NCBI GenBank assembly: GCA_963790545.1
Contig: CAWBPA010000024.1
Coordinates: 94,014-158,013 of the forward strand
DNA from: Vicinamibacterales bacterium
GTDB lineage: Bacteria; Acidobacteriota; Vicinamibacteria; Vicinamibacterales; JAMQPK01
DNA length: 64,000 bases
Direction of reading: 5' to 3'
Positions within the stretch are counted from its first letter, which is position 1, and each line of letters begins with the position of its first letter. Position numbers and translations under genes: made by a program. Of this stretch, positions 1,052 through 61,042 are shown one piece after another. The notes under the pieces are model-generated. The model had not been told where the DNA came from. It ran no database searches and saw only the letters and a program-made list of their open reading frames with translations.

Positions 1052-1146
1052 GGTTCTAAGGTTCTAGGGTTCCACGGTTCTAGGGTTCCACGATTTTCGA
1101 CCCGTCCGAACCGTAGAACCCTAGAACCTTAGAACCCTAGAACCCT
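1052..1146. repeat. palindrome built from tandem 8-mers (5 x NGGTTCYA, spacer, 4 x CCNTAGAA); likely bidirectional terminator between convergent genes
   Basis: gggttcta aggttcta gggttcca cggttcta gggttcca ... ccgtagaa ccctagaa ccttagaa ccctagaa; the arms are reverse complements. Confidence 0.8.
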
Positions 1147-1162
1147 CTATTGCACCCTCACT

Positions 1163-2332
1163 TCAACTCTGCCCGGCGCCGACGTGTTGCCATCCGTCGT
1201 GGTGACGGTCACCGTCACTGCGTAAGTCCCAACTGCTGCCGTAGCCATGGCTGGTGATGGTGCCGCTGGTACTGGTGGTCACGCCATCCCCGAAGTTCCA
1301 GTTAAAGCGTTCGACAGCTGTCGTGCTAGGCGTTACAGCGGCGGTAAACGTCACCTGCGCGCCGACGGTCGCTGGATTTGGACTGGCCGTGAGATTGACG
1401 TTGACAGGCGCCGACGGCAACACGATGACCGAGGTGCCGCCCGAAACGGATTCGCCATTCGAGTCGATGCCAGTGACGCGCACAGAGTACGTCCCCGATG
1501 ACTGATAAGCGTGCGGAACCGTCGTGGCACTCGAAATGGTTCCAAGAGAAGTGCTGCTGCCATCTCCGAAGTCCACCACCACGTTCCGTACGACGGCGTT
1601 TGTGCCAATCGGTGCCACACTGATGGTTGTCACCGCGCCAGCCAGCGGGGCAGTGGCCGGAGGCGTGACGCTCAAACCGGTCGCCGGCCGAACGCCCACG
1701 ACGACCTCCGATGAAACCTTTGTGCCGGCCCGAGCCGTCACTCGTGATTCCTGGTTGCTCGTCAAGGTCGAGCGAGCTTCGCCAAGCGCGTCGGTCACGG
1801 CGGTGGACGGGTTCAGGCTCCCGGTTGTGGCTGAGAACGTCACTGGAATACCCGCCAGTCCCTGCCCTCCGGTGCCTCGCACCGTGGCAAGCAGGACGAC
1901 GAATCCGCCAAGCGCCGGAAAGGTACCGGGGGTGGCCGACAATGAGACCGTGTCGGCGGCCGCCGCACCCACCGTGATTTCAAGAGCCTCGGACCGCGCC
2001 CCGCCCGAGGACGCAGTCACCCGCGCCACACCCGACGAGCCGTTCGCGTTCAGCCGGACGTTGGCTCTTCCGTTGTTGGTCCGCGCTTCGGTGAGATCGA
2101 GCTGACCGAGCGTCGTCGTGAACACCACCAGTGTCCCGTTGTGCACGGGAGTGCCCCCGTTCTCGACAATGTGCGCGGTGAGTTCCGCCGTCTCACTCAC
2201 ACCAAGAACGATGTGAGAGCTCGTCAGCGTGACCGTCGACCCCGACGGCGCGAGGAGCGGAAGCTGATCGCAGGCTGCCAGGGCCAGCGCCCCAACGAGG
2301 CCAAACCGAAGAAGGGCAATCCGTGTTACCAT
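1163..2332 (-). CDS. lipoprotein with bacterial Ig-like / PKD-like repeats
   Basis: Signal peptide with lipobox (LALAAC) if translation starts at the internal Met MVTRIALL...; repeated T/S/V-rich beta-sandwich-like segments and an FNWNFGDG PKD-type motif near the C-terminus. The called ORF extends to 2356. Confidence 0.6.
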   Translation of the reverse strand: MVTRIALLRFGLVGALALAACDQLPLLAPSGSTVTLTSSHIVLGVSETAELTAHIVENGGTPVHNGTLVVFTTTLGQLDLTEARTNNGRANVRLNANGSSGVARVTASSGGARSEALEITVGAAAADTVSLSATPGTFPALGGFVVLLATVRGTGGQGLAGIPVTFSATTGSLNPSTAVTDALGEARSTLTSNQESRVTARAGTKVSSEVVVGVRPATGLSVTPPATAPLAGAVTTISVAPIGTNAVVRNVVVDFGDGSSTSLGTISSATTVPHAYQSSGTYSVRVTGIDSNGESVSGGTSVIVLPSAPVNVNLTASPNPATVGAQVTFTAAVTPSTTAVERFNWNFGDGVTTSTSGTITSHGYGSSWDLRSDGDRHHDGWQHVGAGQS

Positions 2333-2354
2333 GGGCCTTAAAGATAATAATTCC

Positions 2355-3203
2355 ATGCAGTTAGAGGGTCAAGGCATCGCCGACAATCGTGGGTATGCGA
2401 TGGTCATGCTGCTGGTGGCCATGGGCGTGATGGCGGTGGTCTGGACGACCGCTCTGCCGGCCTGGAGCCAGCTGGCAAAGCGTGAGAAGGAAGAGGAGCT
2501 GATTTTCAGAGGCAACCAGTACGCCCGTGCCATCGGTCTCTTCCAGCGCAAGTACGCGAACCAAAGTCCCCCCAGCCTCGACGTGTTGATCGAACAGAAG
2601 TTTCTTCGAAAGAAGTACAAGGACCCGATGGTCCCCAACGGTGAATTCCAGCTCTTATATCAGACGGTCCAGCAGCCCGGATCGACGGGACGCGGCGGCG
2701 AATCGCCCGGACGGTCGTCCCAATCGCAATCTTCTACCGGGCGGTCGTCCCAGCCGGTGCAACCCCTTCAGCCCCAGCCGTCCGCTGCCGTTGCCATACC
2801 GGGTCAGGTCAGCGGTGCTCCAATTATCGGCGTGACGAGCAAGAGCAAAGAGGAGTCGCTCCGGGTGTATAACGGCGCCACCCACTACAACGAGTGGCAA
2901 TTCATCTACCTGGCCACGACACGACAGCCTGGCGCACCCGGCGGCGTCGAGGGCCCAGGCGGAGTTGGCCCCCCCGGCGGTCGAGGCAGGGGGAGCCGCG
3001 GGGAGCCCTTCGATCTTGGCGGTCGCGGGGGACGGGGAAGAGGCGCGCTCGAGCAGGGGCCTGATGGCCGACGAATGTTCAGGCTCGACGACCCAGAGAA
3101 TCCCGGTCGCGGGCGCGGAACAGGTCAACCCCCACGAGGCGGCGTCGCGTTCCCACCGTCCGACAGTGACTTCAATTTCCCGCAACCGCCTCCCCAGCGT
3201 TAA
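2355..3203 (+). CDS. pseudopilin-like protein (GspG fold) with a long Gly/Arg/Pro-rich low-complexity C-terminal tail
   Basis: Leader ...NRG|YAMVMLLVAMGVMAVV hydrophobic helix, then a GspG-like core (RKKYKDPMVPNGEFQLL). The last ~170 aa are GRGG/PGG repeats. The start is chosen at MQLEGQG; the ORF caller starts at 2331. Confidence 0.55.
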   Translation: MQLEGQGIADNRGYAMVMLLVAMGVMAVVWTTALPAWSQLAKREKEEELIFRGNQYARAIGLFQRKYANQSPPSLDVLIEQKFLRKKYKDPMVPNGEFQLLYQTVQQPGSTGRGGESPGRSSQSQSSTGRSSQPVQPLQPQPSAAVAIPGQVSGAPIIGVTSKSKEESLRVYNGATHYNEWQFIYLATTRQPGAPGGVEGPGGVGPPGGRGRGSRGEPFDLGGRGGRGRGALEQGPDGRRMFRLDDPENPGRGRGTGQPPRGGVAFPPSDSDFNFPQPPPQR

Positions 3204-3212
3204 AACAAAGTC

Positions 3213-4187
3213 TCAAGTCAGACTTTCCATTATTTCGTCGTGAAGACCCGCCCGAATCGGGCGAATGGCTTCGTTGTTCCGAGTGGGATGCACGCGGTTG
3301 GTCAAGAGCACCACGTAAACGTTGTGGACCGGATCGATCCAGAGTGACGTTCCGGTAAAGCCGGTGTGTCCGAACGCTTGGGGCGACATCCGTGAGCCGC
3401 ACGATGAGGTCGGCAGCATCGTGTCCCATCCGAGCGCGCGGGAACTGCCGGGCACGCCGGTCTTCGTCAGGAACTGCCGAAGCGTCGCAGTCGATGCCAG
3501 GCGTAACGCGTCTGGTGACGACTGAGACGTGACCTCGCGCAATACGCGCTGCGCAAACTTGCCAACCGCCACTACCGATCCAAACAGTCCCGCGTGGCCT
3601 GCCGCTCCGCCGAGGGCCCAGCAATTCTCGTCGTGCACTTCACCGATGAGCTGTCGCCCTCGCCACGGATCGACCTCGGTTGGCGCCGTGCGATCGCGCC
3701 ACGATCCGGGGGGATGAAAAGCCAGCTGTCCGATTCCGAGCTCGGTCATGAGCGCCGTACCTTGATCGCCGAACGACCGTCCTCCCACGTCTTCGAGAAT
3801 GAATCCAAGAATCATGAAGCCGAGATCGCTGTAAATCGATTGCGTCCGAGGCGCGTATTCGAGTGGCAGCGTCGCGATGGCGTGTTGGTACTCGCGACGC
3901 CCGACATGATCGCGAAAGAGGGGAAGCCACGCTGTGAGGCCGCTCGCGTGTTCGAGAAGATCCCGAACCGTCACAGTTTCCCGGTCGTGCCCCCTCCACT
4001 CGCTGATGCGACTCCCGACGGTGTCATCAAGCGACAGGCGACCCTCGTCGACGCGACGCATGGCAAGCGATGTCGTGACGATGACTTTGGTGAGCGAGGC
4101 CAGATCAAAAATCGTGTCCGATGTCGCGACCGGGGCAGCTGGATCGTACAGAAGAGCGACCGAACGCCTCACGCCAGAGGAGTTCAT
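3213..4187 (-). CDS. serine hydrolase, class C beta-lactamase / esterase family
   Basis: SLTK (SxxK) near the N-terminus, YSD and HTGFTG (KTG-like) motifs. No signal peptide from the called Met; the real start may lie upstream, before the terminator at 4288. Confidence 0.7.
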   Translation of the reverse strand: MNSSGVRRSVALLYDPAAPVATSDTIFDLASLTKVIVTTSLAMRRVDEGRLSLDDTVGSRISEWRGHDRETVTVRDLLEHASGLTAWLPLFRDHVGRREYQHAIATLPLEYAPRTQSIYSDLGFMILGFILEDVGGRSFGDQGTALMTELGIGQLAFHPPGSWRDRTAPTEVDPWRGRQLIGEVHDENCWALGGAAGHAGLFGSVVAVGKFAQRVLREVTSQSSPDALRLASTATLRQFLTKTGVPGSSRALGWDTMLPTSSCGSRMSPQAFGHTGFTGTSLWIDPVHNVYVVLLTNRVHPTRNNEAIRPIRAGLHDEIMESLT

Positions 4188-4287
4188 GGCCCGTGCCGAC
4201 TTCTACGGCCGCAGCGGGGAACGCACGCGTCGCGACGCCCTGGATCAGGACCGCTCGTGCACGATCGACGTTGAGGCGGGTCACAAA

Positions 4288-4358
4288 GGAAAAAGGGGTC
4301 GGGAGTCTTTTTCTGTTCGTACGAATCACCGGAAAAAAGACTCCCGACCCCTTTTTCC
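4288..4358. terminator. strong stem-loop (25-nt perfect arms) downstream of the GHL10 gene
   Basis: ggaaaaaggggtcgggagtcttttt ... aaaaagactcccgacccctttttcc; T-run on the minus strand. Confidence 0.8.
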
Positions 4359-5631
4359 TCAGTGAATGAACGCCGCGCGCCCGATGTCTGACAATGCGTC
4401 CGATTGGCCGGGAAATGTTGCGAAGTTGTCGTACGAGAACAGCACCACGCCACGCGCCCCAATCTCGCGCGCCGTCAGAATGCTTTCAATCGTCTCGGAG
4501 GACGACAGTCGATACGCACCAATACCGGCCCAGACAGCCTTGTCTCCGGCCAGAACTCGCGCGGACTCAATCTGGGCCCGGAAGGCGCTCGGATCGGTTG
4601 TGTACGCCATGGGACAAATGACATCGAGCAGCCCACGCCCCATCCAGAGCGGCCAGTCCTGCATCCGCCGCGCCACGGCGTCTCGAGCGTCCGGGAATAC
4701 GGCAGCACTGACGGTCGCGGTCGGGCGACGTGATTTGACGGCCGCACGCAAACGGACGAGAAGCGCCGTAAGCCTGTCGCGTCGAAACTCCCGCCAGCGC
4801 TCAGGAAACGCCTCTGCGTAGATAGTCGGTTCCGCCTTGAGCCGCGCATCGAAACGGTTCCGCTCGGTCCGCGTCAAATCGGAAACCACGTCGCGTCGAA
4901 ACCGCGCCAGGGCGGCCGCGCTGTGATCGAAGTCCTCGTTGGGATAGCGGATGTAGTCGAAATGAACGCCATCCACATCGTAGCGTCTGGCAAGGTCGTC
5001 AACCACCGATGTCGTGTACGCCGCCGCCTCGTCTGGAATGGGAGACAGGGTACAGGCCCTCGACCTGGGCGGATAGGGCCCTGACGGTTCGAACGAGCTT
5101 GTCGACGTATTCGGGACGTTTCGGATCGATCCCGGCAAGCTCTCGAGTAAGTGACTTCGGTACCATCAGCCATTCTGGATGACGATGAACGATGTGCTTC
5201 CTGACGGAGGGCAGCTCGTTGACGTTCGCCACCAGATTGACGTTGATCCACGCGTGCACGCGGAGACCTTGCGCGCGGGCCAACCTGAGGACGGTTGCCA
5301 GGGGATCGAAATCGGGCGTCTGACCAGCAAGCGCTGCTGCCCGCGGCTCGACGCCGTTGCGGAAGAACGCATCGCCTCGGCCTCGAACCTGGACGAGCAA
5401 CGTATTGAAACCCGCTGCGCGCGCAGCGTTCACCATCTGCGCGATCGCCTCGGGACTGGTCAGGCTGGCCCTCTGGACCCACAACGCGCGGACTTCGTCA
5501 TCAGCCAGCTCACCAGGGGACTGCCGTGCCCACAACGTCTGAACGGCGGCGGCAACGACGACAAGAACGAGGAGTCGCGTAGAGCGACGACGCGAACGAT
5601 GAAGAAGAGAAAGTAGCGGGCCCTTTGCCAA
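4359..5631 (-). CDS. GHL10-type glycoside hydrolase-like protein (family 10 glycosylhydrolase / YngK-like), interrupted by one frameshift near 5035
   Basis: N-terminal part (5631 down to 4999) contains GFNTLLVQVRGRGDAFF. The C-terminal part continues in another frame with DVDGVHFDYIRYP. The two ORFs overlap between 4999 and 5138. Confidence 0.65.
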
Positions 5632-5878
5632 ACAGCGCGACTGTAACAGTGGCTGCCGTACGTGTCAAACCCGGCTCTCGGATTTCGAGAGCCAAAAGCC
5701 TCGCCCCGAGCCCCGCCCTTCGAGATCCGAGAGCCTTGCGCCGAGTCCCGCGTTTATAATCGGCCGACATGCCATTCCTCTCGTCCTCAAAGGAACAATT
5801 CTGAGCCTCACGCACGTTGTTGGCCTCGACGTCGGCAGCTCGAAGACGCAGTGCTTTCTCGCCGACGGCGATGGCCGT

Positions 5879-6748
5879 GTGATCGCCCGCGCTGAAGGAC
5901 CCGGGGCAAACATCCGGGTGTTCGGCAAGTTCGAGACCGAGGCGGTCCTGCGCTCGGTCATCGAGTCGGTCGCTGGGATTGAACCGATCCCGCTTGCGGC
6001 GATCTGTGTGGGAATCGCGGGTGCCGATCGCGAGGAAGATACGACTGTCGTTCGCCGGATCGTCCGCCGGATCGTCAAAACCGAGCGCATCCTCGTTGTC
6101 AACGACGCTCTCATTGCGCTCGAAGCCGGCGTCGGCGATGCCCCCGGCATCGTCATCATCGCGGGCACCGGATCGATCGCGTACGGACGGAATGAGCAGT
6201 ATCGGGCGGCGCGCGCGGGCGGTTGGGGCTACGTGCTCGGCGACGAAGGCAGCGGCTACTGGATGGGACGCCTGGCGCTGCGATCGGTCGTCCGCGCCTC
6301 GGACGGTCGCGGCGACAGGACGGCGCTGTCGCCGCTCATTCTCAATCACTTTGGCGTCACACGCGCGCGTGAGCTCGTGCGTGAGATTTACACCCGAGAA
6401 CTCGGCCCCTCGCAGATTGCACCGCTGGCGAAGTACGTCCAGGCGGCCGTCGAAGAAGGGGACCTTGTCGCCCGTCACATTCTGCAAGCCGGAGCGCGCG
6501 AGCTCGTGGCAGCTGCGGGCTCAGTCGCGTCACAGTTGTCGATGACGGAGGAGTCGTTCACGTTCGTGCTGGCCGGAGGCATTTTCCGGGCCGTGCCGTG
6601 GCTTGGTGACGATCTGCCCAAGCGGCTGCCGGTGGTCGCTCCCCGCAGCCGCACCGAGCTACTCCAGGAGGAACCAGCTCTGGGCGCGATCAGGCTCGCG
6701 ATGGCGGAAGCCAGAGGCAGTGCGCGCATCCCAACCTACGGCGACTGA
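5879..6748 (+). CDS. BadF/BadG/BcrA/BcrD-type ATPase (N-acetylglucosamine kinase-like)
   Basis: GxDGG-like sugar-kinase motifs (VGIAGADRE, IIAGTGSIAYG, GWGYVLGDEGSGYW). Homology continues upstream to about 5801 (HVVGLDVGSSKT) without an in-frame ATG, so the true start is probably a non-ATG codon near 5800. Confidence 0.7.
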   Translation: MIARAEGPGANIRVFGKFETEAVLRSVIESVAGIEPIPLAAICVGIAGADREEDTTVVRRIVRRIVKTERILVVNDALIALEAGVGDAPGIVIIAGTGSIAYGRNEQYRAARAGGWGYVLGDEGSGYWMGRLALRSVVRASDGRGDRTALSPLILNHFGVTRARELVREIYTRELGPSQIAPLAKYVQAAVEEGDLVARHILQAGARELVAAAGSVASQLSMTEESFTFVLAGGIFRAVPWLGDDLPKRLPVVAPRSRTELLQEEPALGAIRLAMAEARGSARIPTYGD

Positions 6749-6779
6749 CGCGCCAGCAAAGCCGCACGATTGTCACTAG

Positions 6780-6885
6780 CAAGATCCGGAGCGTAAGCGA
6801 CCCTTCGACGAAGCTCAGGGTCGTCCTGAGCGCAGTCGAAGGACGACGGCAGCGCGTGGGGTGGAGCCCCACGCGAACTAATAGA
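6780..6885. repeat. ~100-nt multi-hairpin intergenic element, copy 1 (copy 2 at 30098-30195)
   Basis: caagatccggagcgtaagcgacccttcgacgaagctcagggtcgtcctgagc...gtcgaaggacgacggcagcgcgtgggg..ccccacgcg shared almost base for base with the second locus; three nested inverted repeats. Confidence 0.8.
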
Positions 6886-6896
6886 AGGCCCGCGTC

Positions 6897-7841
6897 TCAC
6901 CCAGCGTTCAGCAGCTCTTTGAGGCGCGGCTCGAGATCTTCCCGGATGGCTTGACGCACCGAGTCGTCCGCTTTCTTGAGGCGGACAAGGGCCTTCGGGT
7001 AGGTGAGATCCGCTTTGTGCATGACAATCGCGGCTTTGGTGTTCCAGCGGGCGCTGCGTAGCAGCTTGTCCGAGTCGTCGTACTCCAGGCCTGTGACAAT
7101 CATGACAATCCGGCGGGCGCGATCGCGCAACTTTTCCGACCCCGTCTGAACATCGACCATCAGATTGCCGTAGGTCTTGCCGATCCGGACCATCGCGGCC
7201 GTCGTCAGCATGTTCAGCACCATCTTCGTGGCGGTACCTGCCTTGAGGCGCGTGGAACCGGCAATGACCTCGGCGCCTACCGCAGGGGCAATGGTGAGAT
7301 CGACAAACGTCTGCAGCTCGGTTCCCGGGTCGCACGTCACGAAAATGATCTTCGAACCGGCCTTGCGCGCAAACGTGAGAGCGCCGCGAACGAACTGCGT
7401 CATGCCACTGGCCGAAACGCCCACAACCACGTCTCTGCGCGTCGGACGCAGCCGCTTGATCGATCGGGCACCATCGTCGTACCGATCCTCGACGCCCTCT
7501 TTGGCATGCAGGACGGCGTTGCGTCCCCCCGCCATGATGGCCTGAACCATGGCCGCGGGCGTGCCGAACGTCGGCGGCATTTCAGCCGATTCGAGAATGC
7601 CCAGACGACCGCTGGTGCCGGCACCGACGAAAATGACCCGGCCGCCCTTGCGGAAACTCTGGACGATGATGTCCACACCCAGCGCAATACGCGATTTTTC
7701 ACGGTGGACGGCCGCCAGGACTTTGCGGTCATCCTGCATCATCAACTCGACGATGTCGCTCGAGGAGAGTTTGTCGAGCCCTAGCGTGGCGGGATTGATC
7801 GCCTCGGTGGGAAGTTCCTCCCACTTCGACCGATGAGGCAT
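6897..7841 (-). CDS. murQ: N-acetylmuramic acid 6-phosphate etherase
   Basis: SIS-domain signature with GAGTSGRLG and the MurQ-typical C-terminal region; start taken at MPHRSKWEEL. Confidence 0.85.
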   Translation of the reverse strand: MPHRSKWEELPTEAINPATLGLDKLSSSDIVELMMQDDRKVLAAVHREKSRIALGVDIIVQSFRKGGRVIFVGAGTSGRLGILESAEMPPTFGTPAAMVQAIMAGGRNAVLHAKEGVEDRYDDGARSIKRLRPTRRDVVVGVSASGMTQFVRGALTFARKAGSKIIFVTCDPGTELQTFVDLTIAPAVGAEVIAGSTRLKAGTATKMVLNMLTTAAMVRIGKTYGNLMVDVQTGSEKLRDRARRIVMIVTGLEYDDSDKLLRSARWNTKAAIVMHKADLTYPKALVRLKKADDSVRQAIREDLEPRLKELLNAG

Positions 7842-7920
7842 TTCTACAGAACCTTCGCTCGTCGCGAGGTGCGGCCTCGCAGCCGACAAGTAACCGCGCA
7901 TAGTAGCGCCGGGCTCCCGG

Positions 7921-8881
7921 GTGTGTCAACCTAGGGCAGTTTTCAAAACGACTTCCATGGTTGGTCCCGAAACATCAGCACGGCTCCTCGAGACCTATCT
8001 CGACCATCTCCGGATCGAGCGGCGCCTTGCCGATCACACGCTCGAAAGCTATCAACGGGACCTGCTCAAGCTCGCCCAGTTTGCCGCCGGTCGAAGCCAG
8101 ACGCTCGAGTTGCTGGATCGGCACGATCTGGATCGGTTCGTTCAGGAGCTGTCCGGGCAAGGTTTGTCCCCGCGCTCGGTAAGCCGGGCCGTCGCCGCGG
8201 TCAGAAGTTTCTACCGGTTCGTGACCCTCGAGCGCCGGCGCGATCAGAACCCGGCCGAAGATCTCCAGGCACCGCGCGCGTGGCCGGCCCTTCCGAAGTT
8301 CCTCTCGGCTGAAGAGGTCGACCGCCTCATTCAGATACCCGACACCACGACGGTGCGCGGGCTTCGCGATCGCGCACTCATCGAGCTTCTCTATGCAACC
8401 GGCCTCCGCGTTTCGGAGCTGGTGCAGCTGCGGGTGACCGACGTCAACCTCGAAGCCGCGTACCTGTCGTGTACGGGGAAAGGCGGAAAGCAGCGCGTCG
8501 TGCCGATTGGTGACGAAGCCAGCTCCTGGGTCAGCCGCTACCTTTCCACGGCGCGGCCGGCGCTCGTGGGCCGGAAAGCGCACGGGAAACCTGGCGGGGC
8601 GGAGCGCTTGTTCGTGAACGCGCGCGGGGGTCGCGCGCTGTCCCGCGTCGGGTTCTGGAAGATCCTCAAGCAGTGACGCCACAAAGGCGGGGTTGGGACG
8701 AGCGTTGAGTCCACATGTGCTGCGCCACTCGTTCGCCACGCACCTGCTCGACCGCGGCGCGGACCTGCGGGCCATCCAGCTCATGCTGGGTCATGCGGAT
8801 TTGTCCACCACGCAGATCTACACCCACGTACTCGAGGCGCGCCTTCGAGTCGTCTACGACAAATATCATCCGCGTCCGTAA
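7921..8881 (+). CDS. xerD: tyrosine recombinase XerD, frameshifted by one extra base at about 8674
   Basis: N-terminal SAM-like domain ([22 protein letters not shown]). The first frame ends ...FWKILKQ*. The next frame continues [15 protein letters not shown]...[15 protein letters not shown] with the catalytic R-H-R-Y residues. Removing one G in cagtGacgcc restores QYATKAGL. Confidence 0.8.
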
Positions 8882-8890
8882 GAGTGTGAT

Positions 8891-8982
8891 GCGAAATTAC
8901 GTCGTAGGGCGGGCCTTGCTTTGTAGGTCCGCCTGGAGCCGGGTCCAAAGAGCAGGACCCGGCCTACGTACGGCAATTTCGC
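8891..8982. other. long compound inverted repeat downstream of xerD (terminator or structured RNA)
   Basis: gcgaaattacgtcgtagg...ccgggtcc aaagagca ggacccgg...cctacgtacggcaatttcgc; the outer ~20-nt arms enclose an inner 8-bp hairpin. Confidence 0.5.
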
Positions 8983-9234
8983 CACGCGCGTCAAAGAGTC
9001 CGCGCTGGGGTCCGCGTCGGTGAAACGAGAAAAGCATCAACAGTGCGTCAAAACCCACATTTGTTGGACAGCTTTAGCGTCCTTTGATAAAGTGTCTCGG
9101 TTCTGGAGGGCCGTAAATATCACCCGTATGGGTGGTACGTGCGCCTCCGCCGCACATAACTTCACCAGCGCTGGACGACGCGACCGACCCCGGTGTGCGA
9201 CGGACGTGCGCGCCTAGCTCAGGAGTTCTACGCA

Positions 9235-10386: not shown

Positions 10387-10404
10387 GCACGGTCATTCGC
10401 TCTC

Positions 10405-52622: not shown

Positions 52623-52757
52623 TCTCCTACGGAGACCACGACGGGATTGCTCTGCTCACGCGCCAGGGACTTCTCGAGGTCTTCACGCTCAAGGGTGAGA
52701 TCTGATTTTTGCGCTGGTCGCGATGCGGTCAACCTGCAGGCATCGAATGCGCAAAAA

Positions 52758-53747
52758 TCAAGCGCCGGCGACCGCATAAGGGCCCACGCGCTTGGATTCC
52801 GAGTAGGCTCGATACAGACGCAGATACGCGCAAAGCGCCGTCAGGCCCACATATTCGAAAACAAAACCTCGCACGACCCACGCCAACGCCTGCAACGGAA
52901 AAACGGCCAGCCCCACGATTGGCACAAACGCGACCAGACCAAGGCCCGTCGTGGCCAGCACGGACACCGTTGTCGTCAGGACCACCATGACGAGCACGAC
53001 GCCGAACACTCCAGCCACCTCCCGAAGCTCTTCTTTCAGGAACTGAGCGATCCGCCCCATGGCCGTTCGAACACCGATGTCCTCAACCGCAATGGCTACC
53101 TGCGCGAGCAGATAGATCAGGTTGACGATGGTGATCCACACGACGAAGGCGCTCGACCAGACCGCGGCCATCATCGTCCAACCCAGGATGAGTGCTCCCT
53201 CCGAGGCACTCTGGAAACTGCCGAACATGAGTGCAAGATAGACGGCGCCCGAAATCGCGTACGCCACCATCAACCCGAACCCCAGCGTCAGATATCGCCG
53301 GAACAAGATGCTGGCAGCCCTGGATGAAGAGCTCGGGTGAAAATGCGGCTGGCGCGTCGAAGCCCTTCGAGGCGCCATGGGCCCTCGTTCGATCACACCC
53401 GCTCGCCGGTCGCCAGCCACGAGCACGGTGACCGTCCCCCCCTTGATGAGGAACATGAAGATCGATCCGCCTGCGAGCGCAATCACGAACGCCACCAGAA
53501 AGGCCGTCAGCGCCACGGGCCGGGCGATGAGGACGGTCGCCACTTCTGACAACCCTTCCCGAACGCCTGCCCCCAGGAGTTGGATCGCATTGCCGCCAAC
53601 CAGCACGACGACGAGGAAGGCGCCCCCGATGACAGGGATGGTCAGGAGGATCTTGACGGCTGTCGCGACCACGAACTGCACGGCAATGACGGGCCAGTTC
53701 GCGGCCGCCAGCAGTGCACCGCGTCGCAGCAGCAACCGCAGATTCAT
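52758..53747 (-). CDS. polytopic membrane protein of unknown function
   Basis: Multiple hydrophobic helices from Met at 53747 (MNLRLLLRRGALLAAANWPVIAVQF...). The 158 codons upstream of this Met in the called ORF are low-complexity and probably non-coding. Confidence 0.5.
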   Translation of the reverse strand: MNLRLLLRRGALLAAANWPVIAVQFVVATAVKILLTIPVIGGAFLVVVLVGGNAIQLLGAGVREGLSEVATVLIARPVALTAFLVAFVIALAGGSIFMFLIKGGTVTVLVAGDRRAGVIERGPMAPRRASTRQPHFHPSSSSRAASILFRRYLTLGFGLMVAYAISGAVYLALMFGSFQSASEGALILGWTMMAAVWSSAFVVWITIVNLIYLLAQVAIAVEDIGVRTAMGRIAQFLKEELREVAGVFGVVLVMVVLTTTVSVLATTGLGLVAFVPIVGLAVFPLQALAWVVRGFVFEYVGLTALCAYLRLYRAYSESKRVGPYAVAGA

Positions 53748-53750
53748 AAA

Positions 53751-53795
53751 AAGACAGAATACAGAATACAGAAGACAGAATGACAGAAAACAGGG
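53751..53795. repeat. direct tandem heptamer repeat (ACAGAAT-like x5) in a divergent promoter region
   Basis: aagacagaat acagaat acagaag acagaat gacagaa aacagg. Confidence 0.7.
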
Positions 53796-53864
53796 AGACG
53801 CCTCATCTTCCTCATCCGCCCTATCTTCCCCATCCGCCCCACCCCCGATGTATCCTCCAAGTAA

Positions 53865-56800
53865 ATGGCCGACGTGCGCCTTCGTCGCATCGTCCTGGTC
53901 GGTTTGGGCTGCGCGCTTGCAGCCGTGGCTGCTCGGGGGCGGGATCGAGCGGATCCGGCTCGGGGCCGACGACGAGGCGGCGTTCGCGCTCGTCGAGCGC
54001 GATGTGCGCGGGCGCTTCGACGCGATTACCGCCGCGCTTCGGTCGGTCAGCCGTTCCGTTGCCAGAGCCGATCTCATCGATTCCGCCAGCCAGTCCCGCC
54101 AGCGTGCGCGAACTGATGGATCTGGCGGCCGCGGCACTCGAGACCCATCCGAACGAGGTTGTCGCGGTAACGGTGTTCGGGCCCGAGCCCATTCCCATCG
54201 CGTGGAGCGGGCCGCCATCAACCCTGCCTGCCGAGCGCATCGGCGGCGCCGAAGCTCTTTTTCTCACGCCAGGCCCGCTCGGCTATCGTCTTGTTCACCT
54301 GCTGCCGGTGACGAGCGCGACCGATCTGCGCCGCGTCGGCACCGTCGGCACCGAGTGGGCGCTTCCAGCCAGTGCGGGAGGCCCGAACACCAGCGACACG
54401 ATCCTGTTCGACTCGCTCGTACCAGTCTCGCTGCGGACGCGGTACGAAGGTGCGGGTGAGTTACGACGCGCGAATGCCTTCATCATCGCCGCGCCGGGCG
54501 GCGAACCCCTGCTCGAAGCAACGGTCTCCACCAACGACTTGACGGCTGCCCGAAGCCGGTGGCGCCGCGGGGTTGTGAACATCGTGCTGTCAATCGTGGC
54601 GATCACGCTCGTCCTCGTGACAGGCCCGGTGCTCCGGCGCCGTCGCTGGGCCCGAACGAAAACGACCTACATCTGGCAGACCGTCACCGTGATGGGCCTG
54701 CTGCTGGCTGCGCGAGCCATTCTGTGGTTCGCGCTGGAGGGTCCCTGGGCACAACCACCCCTTCTCGATCCGCCGCCAACGAGTGCGCTGGCGCGGCTGT
54801 TTCTGAGATCCGGTGTCGATTTGCTGCTGACCGCCTTGTTTTGCCTGGGCGCAACGGCAGTTCTCGCGGACTCGCTCGAACGGTGGCGTCTCGCCAGGAG
54901 CCGCCGGCTCACGTGGAACGGACGGACCGGACGCGTCTTGCCTTTCGTCCTCACGCAAGTCCTCGTCGGGATGGTTGCTGCGCAACTCATCGGGACCTAC
55001 AGCCGCTTCCTCGTCGACGCGCTCGTCGGCACCCCCATCGACATCGTCCATTTCTCGTTGAGTCCGTGGAGCCTGCAGCGTGTTGCATTTGCAACCGGAT
55101 TGATCGGCCTGCACGCCTCCGTCTTATGGGTGGCCGTGCTGCTCCTGCGGTGTCGCGGTCACACCGTGGCGGCTCGCCTGGCGTCACGCCCGCACCCACG
55201 TTCTGGTAGCTGCCTGCTGGCTGGTGGGCATCCTGACCGTGATTGCCATCAGCACCCCCGAAGTCGTACCCGCCACACCCATGCTGACCGGTGCCGGCGC
55301 CGCCGTGCTGCTGGCGCTCGCCATCGGCTGGGGACGGGCGCGGTACCGGCACGCGTCACAAGGCCTTCGTCTGATTGTCGGCGGGCTGGCAGTCATTCTG
55401 CCGGCCATGGTCATGTACCCGGCTGTCTTGAACGTTGCCACCCGCGCGACCGAGCAACTCATCGAACGCCAGTTCGGACCGGAGGCGCTGCTGCAACGCG
55501 AACAGATTCAGGATCGGGTCAGACGCTCACGCGATCAAATCGACCGCCTGCAGGGCCTGGAAGATCTGGCCGCGGCCAACGGGTCGCTATCTTCGCGGGC
55601 CGCGTACACCATCTGGGCGAACACCGACCTGGGCATGTTCCTGTTGACCTCATCGGTTGAGCTCTACGGTCCCGATGGCTCCGTCACGAGCCGTTTCGCT
55701 TTCAACCTTCCGGAAGATACGGCCGGAGTGTTCGCTGAATGGACTCAGGAAGGCTGCGATTGGCAAACCTACGAGGAAGTGTCGCCGTTTGGATCCGAAG
55801 AACGACGGTTGCTGTTTGCCGGACGGGGACTTTGTCGGCCTGATGGAAAAAGTGCCGGCGCCATTGTGATCCGGGCGATGCTCGATTACGACGCGCTCGG
55901 TTTCATCTCGGCCCGGAGCCTGCCGTACGAACTCTTGTTGTCCAATCAGTCGCGGCTCCAGGAAGGATTCTCGGGCCGCGACGTCGAGTTCGTCATCTAC
56001 GGCTGGAGCCAACGGCCCATCTACACCTCCACGGGGAGCGCCTGGACACTCAACGATGAGACCTTTGCGCGGCTGACGCGTTCCCGCGACCCGTTCTGGG
56101 TCACCGCTGCCAGCGGCGATCGTCAATATCAGGTCCACCTCCTCAGCGACCGCGCAGGCATTTACGCCGTTGGCTATCCGCGAGTGACGCTCCTTGGCCA
56201 CATCATCAATCTGGCGGAAGCCGCGGTGCTGGCCGGCATCATGTACGTGCTCATCCTTGCCGCCGCGACGCTTTTTTCCATGACGACAGGGTTTGGCCCG
56301 GCGTCCGGCCGCGCGCTGCTTCGTGAGATTCGCGCGAGTTTCTATCGCAAGCTCTTCCTGGCCTTCGTGCTGGCATCGGTCATCCCTGTCGTAACGCTGG
56401 CATTCGTCACCCGCACCTTCATTGCGGCGCAGGCGCGAAGCACGCTGGAGGCCGCAGCTGTGCGCACGGCCGCGACCGCACAGCGGGTCATTGAGGACTA
56501 CTCGACGCTGAGCCAACGTGATGCGACGGCCCTCCCCAACCTGGACGATCTCGATGCCCTCATGGTGGGGATCAGTCGAACCATCGACCAGGATCTCAAC
56601 ATTTTCGAAGGCCCCACGTTGAGGGCGACGAGTGAACGGTTTCTGTTCGAGTCGCGACTGCTGCCCGAACGCACCCCGAGCGATGTGTACCGCGCGATCG
56701 TCCTGGATCGCCGATCGACGTTCGTGGACCAGGAGTCGCTTGCTGGTTTCCCGTACATGCTTGCCGCGGCGCGCGTCCGCCTGGGTACGCGAAACGCAAT

Positions 56801-57767
56801 CCTGACCATTCCCCTGACGCTGCGACAGCAGCAGACCGAGCAGGAGGTGGACGCCCTCGATCGGCGAATCCTGCTGGCGGCCGTACTGTTCATCCTGCTT
56901 GGCGCCGCGATCGGCTATTCGATGGCGGAGCGGATCGCGGATCCCGTCAACCGACTCACCCGTGCCACGCGGCGCATCGCGCGAGGCGACCTGGAGGCGC
57001 GGGTGCTCGAAACTTCGTCTGACGAGCTCCGAACCCTGATTGGCGCGTTCAATCGGATGGCCTCGGAGCTGCGGCATCAGCGGGCCGAGCTCGAACGCAC
57101 GAACCGTATTGCCGCCTGGGCTGAAATGGCCCGGCAGGTGGCGCATGAAATCAAGAACCCGCTTACGCCCATTCAGCTCTCGGCCGAGCACCTGATGCGC
57201 CTCCACCAGGACCGCGGCAAACCATTGACGCCGGTGCTCGAAGAGTGTCTCACCGCGATTCTGTCCCAGGTGCGACTGCTTCGACAGATCTCGTCCGAGT
57301 TCTCGGCATTCGCCTCGTCGCCCACGCCACATCCTGCCCTGACGTCGCTCGGCGACCTCATCCACGAAGTCGTCGGCCCCTATCGCACCGGGTTGTCCGA
57401 GCGGATTCACATCATCGAAAACGTGTCGCCCGATCTTCCGCCGCTCAGCCTGGATCGCACGCTGCTGGCACGGGCATTGACGAACGTGATTGAGAACGCC
57501 CTCCATGCCATGCCCGGCCGCGGTTCACTCGCGCTGACCGCCGCTCGAGCCGACGGTCGCGTGCGCCTGTCGATTAGCGACACGGGCGAAGGCATGGATG
57601 CCGATGCGCTGCGCCGGGTGTTCGAGCCCTACTTCTCCACCAAAACCCGAGGCACGGGCCTCGGTCTGCCCATAGCCAAACGCAATGTGGAGTTGAATGG
57701 CGGGACGATTGCCGTTGAAAGTCAGAAGGGCGTGGGAACGACGGTGACGATCGAATTGCCAGTGTAA
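53865..57767 (+). CDS. very large NtrY-like sensor histidine kinase (about 1300 aa) with at least three frameshifts (~53940, ~54100, ~55200)
   Basis: C-terminal HAMP (RLTRATRRIARGDLEARV), HisKA (HEIKNPLTPIQLSAEHL) and HATPase_c (DTGEGMD...GTGLGLPIAK). A long N-terminal membrane/periplasmic region is readable across frames (MADVRLRRIVLVGLGCALAAVAA | GIERIRLGADDEAAFALVERD... | ...MDLAAAALETHPNEVVAV...). Confidence 0.7.
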
Positions 57768-57786
57768 GATGCAAGAACGACAGAAG

Positions 57787-58569
57787 CTACACCCTGTCTT
57801 CCTGCATTTTGATGTCCGGGCTGCGATGGCGCAGGCGTTGAACGGCCATCTCGACGAAGGCGGAAATGGTGTAGGTGTAAGCGAGAATCAGCAACGCGCC
57901 CTGCGGATGCGCGAAGATCGCCGCAATCACCACGGCAATGACCATCAAGACCGTGTAGGAATGCGGGGCCTGCAGGTCGATGGTTTTGAAGCTTCGGAAT
58001 CGAATCGTGCTGACCATGAGGAACGCGGGAATGAGCACGAGCGCAATGACCGGCGCTGCGCCTGATGTTTCGCGAAATCCAGCCGGATAGGCAAAGATCG
58101 TGGCGGCCACCACGCCGGCAGCCGTGGGACTTGGCATGCCGACGAAATACCGTTTGTCCACCGAGCCGGCCTGCACGTTGAAGCGCGCCAGCCGCATCGC
58201 GGCGGCCGTCACGTAAATGAACCCGGCAGCCCAGCCCCAGCGTCCGAACGAGGTCAACCCCCAGGAATATGCCAGCACTGCGGGCGCGAGGCCGAACGAC
58301 ACCATGTCGGCCAGCGAGTCGAACTCCACACCAAACGCGCCTTCCGCGCGCAACAACCGCGCAATGCGGCCATCCAGTCCATCAAGTATGAAGGCAAAGC
58401 CGACGAAAGGCGCCGCCGTCGCATACTCGCCCCGCATGGCGTACACGATGCACGCGTATCCGCAGAAGAGATTCCCGAGCGTCATCAGTCCGGGAATCAG
58501 ATACACGCCACGACGAAATCGGCGCGAGGCGAAATCGGATTGTCGCCGCCGCGGTGGGAGCATGGCCAT
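57787..58569 (-). CDS. pssA: CDP-diacylglycerol--serine O-phosphatidyltransferase
   Basis: CDP-alcohol phosphatidyltransferase motif DGLDGRIAR...G.E.DSLAD. Confidence 0.85.
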   Translation of the reverse strand: MAMLPPRRRQSDFASRRFRRGVYLIPGLMTLGNLFCGYACIVYAMRGEYATAAPFVGFAFILDGLDGRIARLLRAEGAFGVEFDSLADMVSFGLAPAVLAYSWGLTSFGRWGWAAGFIYVTAAAMRLARFNVQAGSVDKRYFVGMPSPTAAGVVAATIFAYPAGFRETSGAAPVIALVLIPAFLMVSTIRFRSFKTIDLQAPHSYTVLMVIAVVIAAIFAHPQGALLILAYTYTISAFVEMAVQRLRHRSPDIKMQEDRV

Positions 58570-58650
58570 GTCCTGATATTACATCTCCTGCCGCTCGACC
58601 GTACTCCCCTTCGAAACACACCGCATTTCCAAGTTTTGCGTTCGAGCTTT

Positions 58651-59267
58651 TCAGTCCCGTTGCGGGAGCCGGGCAATAACCGTCTCTCCACCTCGCACAT
58701 GAGCCCCCACCTTCACGCAGAGGATCGCGGTCGAAGGAAGGAACACGTCCATGCGAGACCCGAACTTCATCACACCGAACCGGTCCCCCGCCGACACCTG
58801 GCGGCCTGGTTCCAGGCGACATACCACCCTGCGCGCCAGCACTCCGACGATCTGCCTGAACACGATCGGCCGACCGTCGTGATCGATCCACACTTCGCTG
58901 CACTCGTTCGATCCCGCGGCTTCCGGACGATACGCCGCCAGGAATCGACCGGGACGATAGGTCACGCTCGTGACCCGGCCCGTCGCCGGAACCCTGTTGA
59001 CGTGCACATCAAGTGGCGACAGAAACACGCTGACTTGCAGCCAGTCGCCGGGTGGCGCCACGCCGGGCTGCGGTGCGCCCGCAACGAGCACCCGTCCATC
59101 GGCAGGCGACACGATGGCCGCCGGATCGCTGGGGCGGGTGCCGCTCGGGATCGCGGAAGAACAACAGCAGCACCACCGCAAGGATGAGCACGGGAACGGC
59201 GACCAATGCGCCACCCGCCCAGGCCACGAGTGCTGTGAGGATGAGCGCTGCGCCGACAAACGGCCAT
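58651..59267 (-). CDS. psd: phosphatidylserine decarboxylase (short archaeal-type proenzyme), frameshift near 59100
   Basis: N-terminal TM (MKIDPAGWPFVGAALILTALVAW...FFRDPER) in one frame; catalytic part SPADGRVL...FLSPLDVHVNRVP...GS(R) in the other. Confidence 0.75.
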
Positions 59268-59388
59268 CCTGCGGGATCGATCTTCATGGTGGAGAAATGC
59301 GGCAGCGGGAGTTCAGCGGACCCGAACGAGAGCGTGAGGGTTCCGAGAAGCGGGTTCCAGACCCGCCTCTCGGATACGCGAATGCTGT

Positions 59389-59649
59389 CTAGTGGGTGCT
59401 CGGCGCCTGCGACGCGGATTCCTGATCGCGCGCGCGGTTCCGCCGAAGAATATTCTCCATGCGGTCCTTCAACGCCAGCTTCCGCTTCTTCAGCGTGACT
59501 TCTTCGACTTGTTCGGGTTCTGACAGGTAATGCTTGATGGCGAGATCGTGGAGGCGACTTTCAAGTTCGGAGTGCTTGATCGCGAGTTGACGGAACTCAT
59601 CATCAGTGCGCAGCAGGAGCTCCTTCAACTCTTCGGAGTGTGTGGGCAT
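59389..59649 (-). CDS. DUF465-family small protein (YdcH-like)
   Basis: 86 aa, coiled-coil EELKELLLRTDDEFRQL...LKKRKLALKDRM. Confidence 0.6.
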   Translation of the reverse strand: MPTHSEELKELLLRTDDEFRQLAIKHSELESRLHDLAIKHYLSEPEQVEEVTLKKRKLALKDRMENILRRNRARDQESASQAPSTH

Positions 59650-59744
59650 TCTCCGCCTCCCTGTAGCTGATGTTCTGGTTCATAAAAGGTTGGACTGCGT
59701 GTAACACGAACGTAACATAAGGGCTCTTGACGTTCAAGACCCCA

Positions 59745-60245
59745 TTAGCGCGGCCCGGCGGCTGGCAGGTCGGGACGCCACAAAATTAGGGCATCTTCGG
59801 TGGGTTGTGCGTAATAGTTGCGCCGAATACCGGCCGTTTCGAAGCCAAGCCGCTCGTAAATCCGCCGCGCCTCCTCGTTGGACCGCCGGACTTCGAGCGT
59901 CGCCCGCCGCGCCCCCAGGCGTGCCGCCGTGTGCATGGCATGCTTCAGCAGGGTCGTGCCGATTCCCTGCCGACGGTAGGCGGGATGAATCGCCAGGTTG
60001 TTGATGTGAAGTTCGTCGAAAACCAGCCAGAAGGAACAAAAACCCGCCACAATCTCGATGTCGCCGCTCGGCAGACGCAAGATGTAGATGTGCGAGACCC
60101 GGGGATTGTCCATTTCGCGCAAGTACATCTCGCGCGTCCACGGATTGGTAAACGAGAGCGATTCGATCTCCAGCACCGCTTCCAGATCGCGATCGGTCAC
60201 CACTCGCTCGATTTTCCACGAGCCGCCCGCGTGGTCGTGTGTCAT
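59745..60245 (-). CDS. rimI: ribosomal-protein-alanine N-acetyltransferase (GNAT)
   Basis: GNAT motif A RRQGIGTTLL...A..LG; 4-nt overlap with tsaB upstream. Confidence 0.8.
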   Translation of the reverse strand: MTHDHAGGSWKIERVVTDRDLEAVLEIESLSFTNPWTREMYLREMDNPRVSHIYILRLPSGDIEIVAGFCSFWLVFDELHINNLAIHPAYRRQGIGTTLLKHAMHTAARLGARRATLEVRRSNEEARRIYERLGFETAGIRRNYYAQPTEDALILWRPDLPAAGPR

Positions 60246-60947
60246 CGATTTGCCCGGACCTTGTCGCGGTCGCGCGCCAGCTCGGCGTCAGGACGACGGA
60301 TGTACAAAGGACGAATCGTATCGGGGCCGGGAGCCGGAGCGGTTTGGGTCCGCTCGGCCGCCATCAATCCGATGGCCGGTGCGATGAGCGGTGTCGGCTC
60401 CAGCAGAAGATACCGCGCCACGAGCTGCCGGTACGCGATCGCGCCGTCGCCGACGAACCAGGTGCGCCGGGTCGCCAATGCCCATCGTGTCAGGACGTCG
60501 TCGGGTGGAGCGACGAGCGGCCCATCCACGAGGGAGAGATTCTGGCCCTCGTAGAGGGCCGCAAAGACTTCGCCCCGCTGAGCATCCATCCAGACCGCCA
60601 ACGCATCGGGTGCCGCGGTGTCGACCATCTGGCGCCGGGCGCCAAGCGCAAGCGCATCGAGCGCAGACAGTCCGATCAGCCCTTTCCCGATGAGCCACGG
60701 CCAGCCCCTGCATCGTCGCGATGCCAACACGCAGGCCTGTGAACGATCCTGGACCAGCAGCGACGGCAAACACGTCGATGTCCTTCAGCCCCACGTGACA
60801 CGTCGCGAGGAGCCGCATGATGTCGGCTGGCAGGCGTTCGCCGTGCGTGCGCGTCGGGTCGCCGGCTTCCACGGCTACGAGCGCGTCACGATCGACGAGC
60901 GCGACGCTTCCGCTACGGGTCGTCGTGTCGAGGGCAAGGATCCGCAT
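60242..60947 (-). CDS. tsaB: tRNA t6A37 biosynthesis protein TsaB (YeaZ), frameshift near 60720
   Basis: MRILALDTTTRSGSVAL...FAVAAGPGSFTGLRVGIATMQGLA in one frame, the C-terminal half in another. Confidence 0.75.
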
Positions 60948-60952
60948 GTAGA

Positions 60953-61042
60953 ATGAAACAGTCCACAGTCGACAGTCCACGGTCGACGGTCGACAGTCGT
61001 TGACTGACGACTGATGACCGACGACTGACGACTGACGAGCAC
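60953..61042. repeat. palindrome built from tandem heptamers (CAGTCSA x6 then CGACTGA x5) between the divergent tsaB and mutS starts
   Basis: cagtcca cagtcga cagtcca cggtcga cggtcga cagtcg ttgactga cgactga tgaccga cgactga cgactga. Confidence 0.8.

Follow-up and report, generated by a model that had tools for sequence, protein, structure and literature searches.

Heptamer repeats of cyanobacteria have been fingerprinting targets for decades. In many prokaryotes, heptanucleotides form the commonest class of long simple sequence repeats (SSRs), and slippage related to the polymerase footprint has been proposed as an explanation (Mrazek et al., 2007, as summarized in PMC4679880 and PMC4692102). 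Described examples include the short tandemly repeated repetitive (STRR) heptamers of Calothrix (Mazel, 1990, as cited in PMC4692102), the GGGGAYT arrays of Nostoc (Rehm et al., 2015, PMC4692102), and the TAACTGA repeats found beside start codons in Beggiatoaceae, cyanobacteria, and Bacteroidetes (MacGregor, 2015, PMC4679880). Xanthomonas genomes each contain 70-75 convergent inverted pairs of GGGAATC arrays, which have positions conserved between species and variable lengths and are unlinked to mobile elements (PMC4692102). Paired inverted sites of three to five tandem 7-9 nt units are present in Geobacter metallireducens (PMC2700814). No earlier report of heptamer repeats in Acidobacteria was found in the literature. 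Here, we describe short-unit tandem arrays, and hairpins built from them, in a 64,000-nt stretch of DNA from a Vicinamibacterales bacterium (contig CAWBPA010000024.1, positions 94,014 to 158,013; hereafter the window), together with their connection to two families of small genes.

A second relevant system is the intervening sequence (IVS) of 23S rRNA genes. In Coxiella burnetii the IVS is a stem-loop that contains a four-helix-bundle open reading frame (ORF) and two to three tandem GACAGAT heptamers; the number of heptamers is strain-dependent, and the first of them is where RNase III cleaves (Warrier et al., 2016, PMC4990558).

The arrays of the window share several properties with the intergenic heptameric SSRs: 7-nt tandem units, an intergenic position near stop or start codons, frequent convergent inverted pairs, positions that are kept between relatives while length and sequence vary, no link to insertion sequences, and an unexplained function. 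Because inverted heptamer arrays have already been described in other bacteria, the architecture is of a known, unexplained kind. However, heptameric SSR genomes have one or a few dominant units each, whereas six or more unrelated units are found in the 64 kb of the window, and the units vary from locus to locus and from genome to genome. The accessible parts of the SSR literature do not mention Vicinamibacterales and do not tie the arrays to four-helix-bundle or GxxExxY genes. The gene-bearing cassettes described below share with the 23S IVS a stem-loop with complementary termini, a PF05635 ORF in the loop, and tandem heptamers adjacent to the ORF. The IVS is regarded as selfish, as the cassettes probably are, and its stem is cut by RNase III. 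The IVS is situated in helix 25 or 45 of 23S rRNA and its ORF encodes a four-helix bundle; the elements reported here lie between protein-coding genes and mostly lack an ORF, and the one cassette ORF of the window encodes a GxxExxY protein.

Periodic arrays and hairpins between genes

The source genome is represented by the 64 kb of the window, which has a G+C content of ~62% and carries the housekeeping genes dnaE, guaA, mutS, rapZ, accA, parB, and the EIIA gene of the phosphotransferase system (PTS). Relatives of its DnaE belong to the Vicinamibacterales (Acidobacteriota), the closest with 93% protein identity and the rest with 65-77%. Comparison loci, ~160 related loci in all, are designated L001 and so on. 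Tandem Repeats Finder (TRF) was applied to the window and 80 Vicinamibacterales dnaE loci (1.64 Mb in total), with dinucleotide shuffles as the chance control. It revealed 85 arrays of period 7, nine of period 8, and 14 of period 9, compared with two or fewer at any other period, and shuffling of the same DNA yielded no period-7 array. Five lag-7 runs with a score of at least 14 were present in the window itself (mean of 0.0 in 20 shuffles) and none at periods 4-6; the excess over chance, which the first-pass annotation of this DNA had named as a point to be tested, is real. The arrays lie between genes: 68 of the 85 period-7 arrays fall in the 7.9% called intergenic, a ~47-fold enrichment that is approximate, as are the underlying gene calls from a custom codon log-odds caller based on codon usage. 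Autocorrelation has bumps at lags 7 and 14 in intergenic DNA and not in coding DNA, and 828 spacers contained 68 lag-7 runs vs. 0 for periods 4-6. The arrays extend from 0-10 nt past the upstream stop to a few nucleotides ahead of the next start, nearly filling the spacer, which may be codirectional, convergent, or divergent. Median spacer length is 126 nt with arrays and 50 nt without, and the arrays average 53% G+C.

About a dozen intergenic spacers of the window carry arrays or hairpins, most of them ORF-less copies. They are listed below with copy numbers from TRF and, in part, the minimum free energy (MFE) of the fold and its z score; a dot denotes that no strand is assigned.

1049-1146 (.), periodic hairpin between convergent genes; 5' arm (TAGGGTTC)n at 1049-1092, 3' arm (GAACCCTA)n at 1108-1146
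13905-14045 (.), degenerate periodic hairpin with GATT/AATC-type units, filling the convergent spacer after ahcY; MFE -48 kcal/mol, z -3.3
19057-19090 (.), single heptamer array AGACTTC x4.9, 7 nt past the parB stop, without an inverted partner
22769-22804 (-), heptamer array (GGCGAAA)n (TRF TTTCGCC x5.3), in frame with the upstream recN-like ORF, whose C-terminal tail it encodes
30553-30576 (+), short heptamer array GATTCGT x3.4, beginning at the upstream ORF's stop codon
36534-36557 (-), short heptamer array with minus-strand units of the AGGCTCA type, occupying the 32-nt spacer from the PTS EIIA gene to the next gene
36961-37005 (-), heptamer array of alternating GGTCAAA / GGGCAAA, x6.4, forming the entire 43-nt spacer from the rapZ stop to the EIIA start
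42953-43044 (-), ORF-less period-9 hairpin; MFE -49.9 kcal/mol, z -5.4
44815-45345 (+), GxxExxY cassette; 5' arm of CGCAGAG units at ~44827-44875, ORF 44857-45261 (start uncertain), 3' arrays at 45262-45340
49886-49966 (-), periodic hairpin filling the 85-nt guaA-dnaE spacer; in gene sense, 5' (AAGTCAG/AAGTCTG)n and 3' (CTTCAGA)n
53751-53795 (.), single heptamer array GACAGAA / ACAGAAT x5.6 (TRF 53754-53793), adjoining a minus-strand gene start; unstructured
60953-61042 (.), periodic hairpin that takes up the divergent tsaB-mutS spacer of 101 nt (tsaB start 60947, -; mutS start 61049, +)

The folded elements are referred to as periodic hairpins because their arms consist of tandem 7-9 nt units; the single arrays look like one-armed or decayed forms of them. 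Seven loci with tandem 7-8 nt units had been noted in the first-pass annotation, and TRF recovered all seven in place, although the one at 45263-45284 has period 9. Five loci are additional (13905-14045, 22769-22804, 30553-30576, 36534-36557, and 42953-43044). Four of the seven had been described as long hairpins. Three of these fold strongly, with MFE values of -62.7 kcal/mol (z = -8.7) for 1046-1150, -44.3 kcal/mol (z = -6.9) for the minus strand of 49884-49968, and -42 kcal/mol (z = -3.9) for 60947-61048, whereas two smaller hairpins make up the composite at 45255-45345 (z = -3.4). No structure is evident in the single arrays. The view of the seven as one genome-specific family does not hold. 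They are not homogeneous, the period-9 locus being part of a GxxExxY gene cassette (the same annotation had aptly named GxxExxY proteins as candidates), and the same signal is found across Vicinamibacterales, in addition to the published arrays in other phyla. Nor is the layout unprecedented, given the inverted array pairs of Xanthomonas (PMC4692102).

Units recur between loci to some extent. The hairpin at 1049-1146, for which TRF reports period 8, has a GGTTC/GAACC core, identical to that of the four-helix-bundle cassette arms in L059 and L161-L163; the TAG stop of the upstream gene falls within its first unit. TRF finds CGATTCG x3.4 at 14012-14035 within the degenerate hairpin after ahcY, and AAGTCTG / TTCTGAC at 49895-49926 and 49930-49965 in the guaA-dnaE hairpin, the unit family of which is shared by the unstructured array at 19057-19090 (z -1.0). 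The rapZ-EIIA array (TTTGACC x6.4 by TRF) is made of a GGTCAAA / GGGCAAA pair that also makes a hairpin in the unrelated locus L162 (13518-13755), and the unit at 53751-53795 is related to the GACAGAA of the L001 guaA-dnaE hairpin. The arms of the tsaB-mutS hairpin are (ACAGTCG/ACAGTCC)n and (GACTGAC)n (TRF 60958-60999 and 61002-61038). The period-9 hairpin at 42953-43044 has the arms CGCAGGGTT CGCAGAATC CGCGGAGGA CGCAGAGAT and TCTCTGCGA ACTCCGCGA CCTCGGCGC TCTCTGCGT, which are of one family with the arms of the GxxExxY cassette 1.8 kb off. One dominant unit genome-wide was not seen, the window's genome being sampled over 64 kb; there are many units per genome, and sharing is partial. Likewise, near-identical full-length copies with a common consensus in one genome were not found in this limited sampling, units being shared instead.

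Some arrays adjoin or enter reading frames and signals of their neighbors. The recN-like ORF runs through (GGCGAAA)n at 22736-22810 (-) and ends in the tail ...SKAKGESERAKAKQPRRSVRIGD*; the array seems to have taken the place of the original 3' end or stop codon of this ORF. GGAG, a canonical Shine-Dalgarno sequence, is located 5' of the gene that follows this array. A 626-aa ORF at 53780-55660 (+) begins in or beside the ACAGAAT array, has no Pfam/NCBIfam match, and contains near its start an 18-nt tandem repeat (ATCTTCCCCATCCGCCCT x1.9, 53804-53839); it was passed over by the codon-usage caller and is thus perhaps not a gene. At the edges of the tsaB-mutS hairpin, -10-like hexamers were noted by eye (TAGAAT at 60950-60955, plus strand; TACAAT at 61049-61044, minus strand), pointing from the outside in. 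Therefore, both divergent transcripts may start there, which would place the whole hairpin in their 5' leaders.

Longer ORF-less palindromes exist in other loci. In L053, ~490 nt (5820-6306) consist of GGTGCTNNN 9-mers up to the contig end, and in L037, 430 nt (9565-9994) consist of GGTTCNN / NNGAACC units with an MFE of -209 kcal/mol. Both palindromes give long spurious ORFs in every frame.

Whole hairpins are present or absent between close relatives, and the elements are dispensable and turn over fast. L056 has hairpins of 198 nt between guaA and dnaE and of 135 nt between dnaE and accA, whereas the spacers there in L055 and L060, which are 87-89% identical to L056 in dnaE, are of 4, 2, and 1 nt. 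L042 and L043 (89.6% identical) carry unrelated units in one and the same spacer. Arrays are present in the guaA-dnaE spacer of at least 20 of ~70 relatives, each with its own unit, and the array-free spacers are very short. Between the window and L001 (~82% nucleotide identity), the hairpin upstream of dnaE is kept in both, and its units are related but rearranged (AAGTCAG in the window, GACAGAA/TTCTGAC in L001), the two arms differing in step.

Small-gene cassettes between inverted arrays

The ORF at 44857-45261 (+) encodes a GxxExxY protein (TIGR04256, 1e-41; PF13366, PD-(D/E)XK superfamily), and the array locus 45262-45340 is situated directly 3' of it. This locus is composed of ACGCAGAGG x2.4 (TRF 45263-45284, period 9), followed by the imperfect reverse complements CCTCTGCGG..CTCTGCGG. 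CGCAGAG-type units are present on both sides of the ORF in arms of the CGCAGAGG type, and a closing stem is predicted between 44827-44850 and 45310-45335. The orthologous 73-nt spacer of L001 has no cassette: it is ~460 bases shorter and contains just two decayed units. Eight further Vicinamibacterales loci have GxxExxY homologs in this position, which inverted 8-9 nt arrays bracket wherever both flanks are readable. In an independent sample of metagenomic GxxExxY genes, the 5' and 3' flanks were inverted in 46/69 cases, vs. 6/69 in a mismatched-partner control; the flank period was 9, 8, or 10, never 7, and each flank has a conserved consensus (one ..ACCRCAGAGGACRCAGAGG.., the other ..CCTCTGYGTCCTCTGYGGT..). 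Hairpins with the same kind of arms and no ORF occur at 42953-43044 of the window, in the guaA-dnaE spacer of L019, and in the dnaE-accA spacers of L005 and L006. The L019 site is empty in its relative L025.

The second gene family has arms of period 7-8. Inverted repeats 250-1500 nt apart were sought by self-BLAST, which gave mostly noise in G+C-rich DNA and was informative only at the GxxExxY loci, L059, L053, and L037. In L059, a four-helix-bundle gene (PF05635, "23S rRNA IVS protein") is surrounded by (GTTCCNG)n and (CNGGAAC)n, arrays in inverted orientation. Thirty homologs of the L059 gene have C-terminal tails of 7- or 5-residue peptide repeats, which are the read-through of GAACC heptamers or of alternating 7-nt/8-nt units. 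Examination of three of them at the DNA level (L161-L163) revealed (GGTTCGG)n, then the ORF, then (NNGAACC)n. The GGTTC/GAACC core also occurs in ORF-less hairpins of L037 (430 nt) and L058, and with period 8 in the window hairpin at 1049-1146. ORF-less hairpins with cassette-type arms are documented for two unit families only, the period-9 and the GGTTC families. A tblastn search found no PF05635 relative in the window, whose cassette carries PF13366/TIGR04256 instead; PF05635 ORFs are present in L059, L161-L163, and L166-L175.

By tblastn against 72,556 plasmids, matches to the four-helix-bundle protein came chiefly from Nostoc, Calothrix, Aulosira, Anabaena, other cyanobacteria, and Riemerella. 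Ten annotated four-helix-bundle genes from plasmids of Nostoc, Calothrix, Aulosira, Geminocystis, Picosynechococcus, Pseudanabaena, and Riemerella were inspected. Clearly inverted 7-8 nt arrays flank seven of the ten. One, from Pseudanabaena, has long arrays in direct orientation on both sides and an inverted array further upstream, and the remaining two have heptamer arrays that are non-complementary or one-sided. Several of these genes are wedged co-directionally in operons (e.g., cas10|ORF|cmr3 and cas6|ORF|cas4). Four-helix-bundle genes between inverted arrays of 7-8 nt units occur in three phyla, Acidobacteriota, Cyanobacteriota, and Bacteroidota. The link of arrays to four-helix-bundle and GxxExxY cassettes appears to be new, as it did not turn up in the accessible published literature.

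Two further observations concern the cyanobacterial cassettes. The four-helix-bundle genes and arrays of L173 (9992-10348) and L174 (9998-10357) lie inside CRISPR-Cas operons of plasmids. The cassettes of Nostoc punctiforme (L166) and Aulosira (L171) have GAGTCAG / AAGTCAG arms, and AAGTCAG is the unit of the guaA-dnaE hairpin of the window.

Origin and possible role of the elements

With moderate confidence, the periodic hairpins and arrays are explained as dispensable, IVS-like palindromic cassette elements, probably selfish, together with their ORF-less derivatives, remodeled by slippage. PF05635 genes between 7-8 nt arrays and PF13366 genes between 8-10 nt arrays would represent one kind of stem-loop cassette, and the ORF-less hairpins and arrays would derive from such cassettes or be their kin, as MITEs (miniature transposable elements with inverted repeats) are to full transposons. 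Within a genome, the elements would spread or be copied as DNA, and their arms would subsequently lengthen, shorten, and diverge through slipped-strand mispairing. Complementarity of the arms would be maintained by strand-symmetric processes, such as template switching or arm-to-arm copying, rather than by RNA-specific selection. Upon transcription of a host operon the hairpin would form a long double-stranded RNA stem, which RNase III may be expected to cut, just as it removes IVS stems from 23S rRNA. For the host, such elements are probably neutral to mildly regulatory.

Similar relationships are known for repetitive extragenic palindromic (REP) sequences, bacterial interspersed mosaic elements (BIMEs), REP doublets forming hairpins (REPINs), and MITEs. 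Like these, the periodic hairpins are short intergenic palindromes with terminal inverted repeats, probably include non-coding derivatives of a larger gene-bearing element, are present or absent between relatives, and prefer the 3' side of genes. Unlike them, they have no family consensus across copies, their arms are internally periodic, no target-site duplication was seen at empty sites of only 1-4 nt, and neither a RAYT (REP-associated tyrosine transposase) nor a transposase was identified among the window ORFs, which were screened in part.

A number of observations weigh against the cassette explanation. No transposase or other mobilizing enzyme was identified in that partial screen. Comparison of filled with empty sites showed neither a target-site duplication nor a conserved outer terminus, the empty spacers being only 1-4 nt long and the genomes more than 10% apart in the adjacent dnaE. 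Most heptamer families of the window (AAGTCAG, ACAGTCG, TTTGACC, and TTTCGCC) have no ORF-bearing master copy in the DNA examined, which for this genome comprises 64 kb. Sharing of units within a genome, although it exceeds that between genomes (matches with at most one mismatch in 8/52 vs. 121/2028 pairs of sites, p = 0.013), is modest. The AAGTCAG match across phyla may reflect common descent of the element family, or chance. Unequal arms and arrays without a partner fit in-place slippage as well, the recurrent occupation of the same spacers (guaA-dnaE in at least 20 of ~70 relatives) could mean host function rather than tolerance, and processing by RNase III is suggested by the analogy with the IVS.

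Several results bear on function. No T-run follows any periodic hairpin in a terminator consensus scan, and the terminator reading was dropped for this reason. Terminator-like sites are at chance level (10 vs. 14.8 expected in 1-20000 and 14 vs. 12.7 in 44500-62000, shuffled control), and the lone overlap is a weak 6-pair sub-stem inside the 60953-61042 array; the organism may make little use of canonical hairpin-plus-U terminators. Both Rho-independent terminators and the periodic hairpins are stem-loops just past stop codons, some between convergent genes. Unlike terminators, however, the hairpins have stems of at least 30-40 bp (up to ~150 pairs in L037), are not especially G+C-rich, lack a U-run, and are also found between divergent genes and inside operons. 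The earlier statement that these are neither ordinary terminators nor REP elements is borne out by these results and by the lack of an Rfam match. The sense strand has no folding advantage either: of 24 structured codirectional spacers, 10 fold better in the sense and 14 in the antisense orientation (p = 0.64). Because the sense and antisense fold energies are unbiased, the idea of a sense-strand-specific RNA element was dropped. Arm complementarity looks strand-symmetric, and G.U-tolerant, RNA-specific selection is undetectable. There is a polarity, which the ORF-bearing cassettes share: the G-rich arm is 5' relative to the flanking genes in 18/23 structured codirectional spacers (p = 0.011).

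Slippage plausibly contributes in any case, as the first-pass annotation had proposed, since arm copy numbers are often unequal (e.g., 4.4 vs. 14.4 in L014) and units show micro-variation. The stronger proposal that the arrays are purely local SSRs, arising from slippage with an intrinsic 7-nt preference in tolerant intergenic DNA as modeled by Mrazek, Guo, and Shah (2007), with no mobility and no relation to cassettes, seems rather unlikely. Here, inverted arms would come from intrastrand template switching, and cassettes would just share repeat-prone spacers. Such an origin would account for these same inequalities, for the dominance of period 7, as reported in many prokaryotes, for the partnerless arrays at 19057, 36961, and 53751, and for the target-site duplications not being seen; the unbiased folding of the two strands also suits a process at the DNA level. 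It is difficult to reconcile with the spacers of 1-4 nt, which hold no seed where L056 has hairpins of 135-198 nt, with unrelated units in the same spacer at ~90% dnaE identity, and with the sharing of units between distant sites in one genome. The conserved arm consensus across many unrelated GxxExxY and four-helix-bundle loci and the consistent arm polarity also argue against it. Creation or inflation of tandem repeats by short-read metagenome assemblers can be practically discounted. The window and most of its relatives are indeed metagenome-assembled, and the guaA-dnaE array spacer of L059 is broken by a run of N, but at least 36 independent assemblies share this architecture, including megabase contigs and finished plasmids from Nostoc, Calothrix, and Riemerella in culture, and such an artifact could change how many copies an array has but not whether it exists.

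Selection by the host for cis-regulatory RNA or DNA structures, namely processing or stabilizing signals inside operons, unconventional terminators, or translation control of the gene that begins right behind the array, in which the sequence drifts and the stem is kept, is considered unlikely. The repeated occupation of the guaA-dnaE and dnaE-accA spacers would agree with it, as would the joint change of both arms between the window and L001, the depletion of arrays in divergent spacers (4/118 vs. 42/452 elsewhere), the polarity relative to transcription, the abutting of arrays on start codons with no Shine-Dalgarno sequence between, and the lack of enrichment of canonical terminators in the window. 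Close relatives with near-zero spacers, however, do without the hairpins, which moreover occur in convergent, divergent, and codirectional spacers alike; the transcribed strand has no G.U-type advantage, no U-run trails the stems, and there is neither an Rfam family nor a conserved sequence. More improbable still is the proposal, made in the first-pass annotation, that the arrays bind a repeat-reading protein, which would recognize one unit every 7 nt; a cold-shock-domain protein acting on single-stranded RNA or DNA, or the four-helix-bundle or GxxExxY proteins, would be candidates. A strict period with free sequence variation hints at a ruler, genes for nucleic-acid-binding folds are flanked by arrays, and CspB binds heptanucleotides with one protein per unit, according to the review in PMC4679880. 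Even so, at least six unrelated units in 64 kb are hard to square with one sequence-specific reader, the majority of arrays are sequestered in stems, and a conserved host binding site is at odds with units that differ by locus and genome and with the hairpin-free 1-4 nt spacers of relatives.

Other candidates were rejected on more direct grounds. CRISPR arrays were ruled out, since their repeats of 24-48 nt alternate with unique spacers of similar length, whereas the units here are of 7-9 nt and directly abutting. Iterons and REP sequences were set aside on anatomy. A protein search with the translation of (AGACTTC)n, which gives RLQTSDF repeats, returned only ORFs of 34-74 aa without a Pfam domain; the two matches examined lie in eukaryote-like contigs, one with retrotransposon genes, and are unrelated microsatellites.

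If the origin from IVS-like cassettes is accepted for the Acidobacteriota arrays, a wider proposal can be tentatively made, namely that the heptamer excess in bacteria has one origin in the arms and ORF-less remnants of widespread IVS-like stem-loop cassettes; we consider this possible but doubtful. It would cover the cyanobacterial STRRs, the GGGAATC arrays of Xanthomonas, the TAACTGA repeats of Beggiatoaceae and Bacteroidetes, and the Acidobacteriota arrays, with cassettes containing four-helix-bundle (Avd-like, PF05635) or GxxExxY nuclease-like genes parasitizing operon spacers and rRNA genes. If so, the periodic stem would be the target of the encoded protein or of RNase III, and the period (7-8 nt in four-helix-bundle and 8-10 nt in GxxExxY cassettes) would be a property of the element family and not of the replicative polymerase. 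A cassette link that holds genome-wide would provide an origin for bacterial heptamer repeats. The present results add a dominant, uncultured lineage of soil bacteria to those with heptamer arrays, show that whole hairpins are gained or lost between close relatives, and physically tie the arrays to two large, uncharacterized small-gene families in three phyla. The question "why seven?" thereby becomes testable, through array density relative to cassette gene number, protein binding or cutting, and RNase III processing. For genome annotation, many spurious short ORFs, as well as odd repeat-derived N- and C-terminal extensions of called proteins, can be accounted for by the arrays.

Other features of the window

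A scan of the window with Rfam 15 at the gathering threshold gave no match to any periodic array or hairpin and found no rRNA genes. Its sole match is an S-adenosylhomocysteine (SAH) riboswitch (RF01057) at 12282-12350 (+), with 53.7 bits vs. a gathering score of 37, directly 5' of an adenosylhomocysteinase-like ORF (12357/12495-13892). A 35-nt tandem repeat (TTCGAGAGCCAAAAGCCTCGCCCCGAGCCCCGCCC, x1.9) at 5684-5751 has no relation to the short-unit arrays. Between the GH57 gene and parB, ~480 nt (18573-19056) are apparently non-coding; this region includes a G+C-rich hairpin at 19009-19028 and two copies of AATCCCCG at 18802-18817, and could contain a small RNA or an uncalled small gene.

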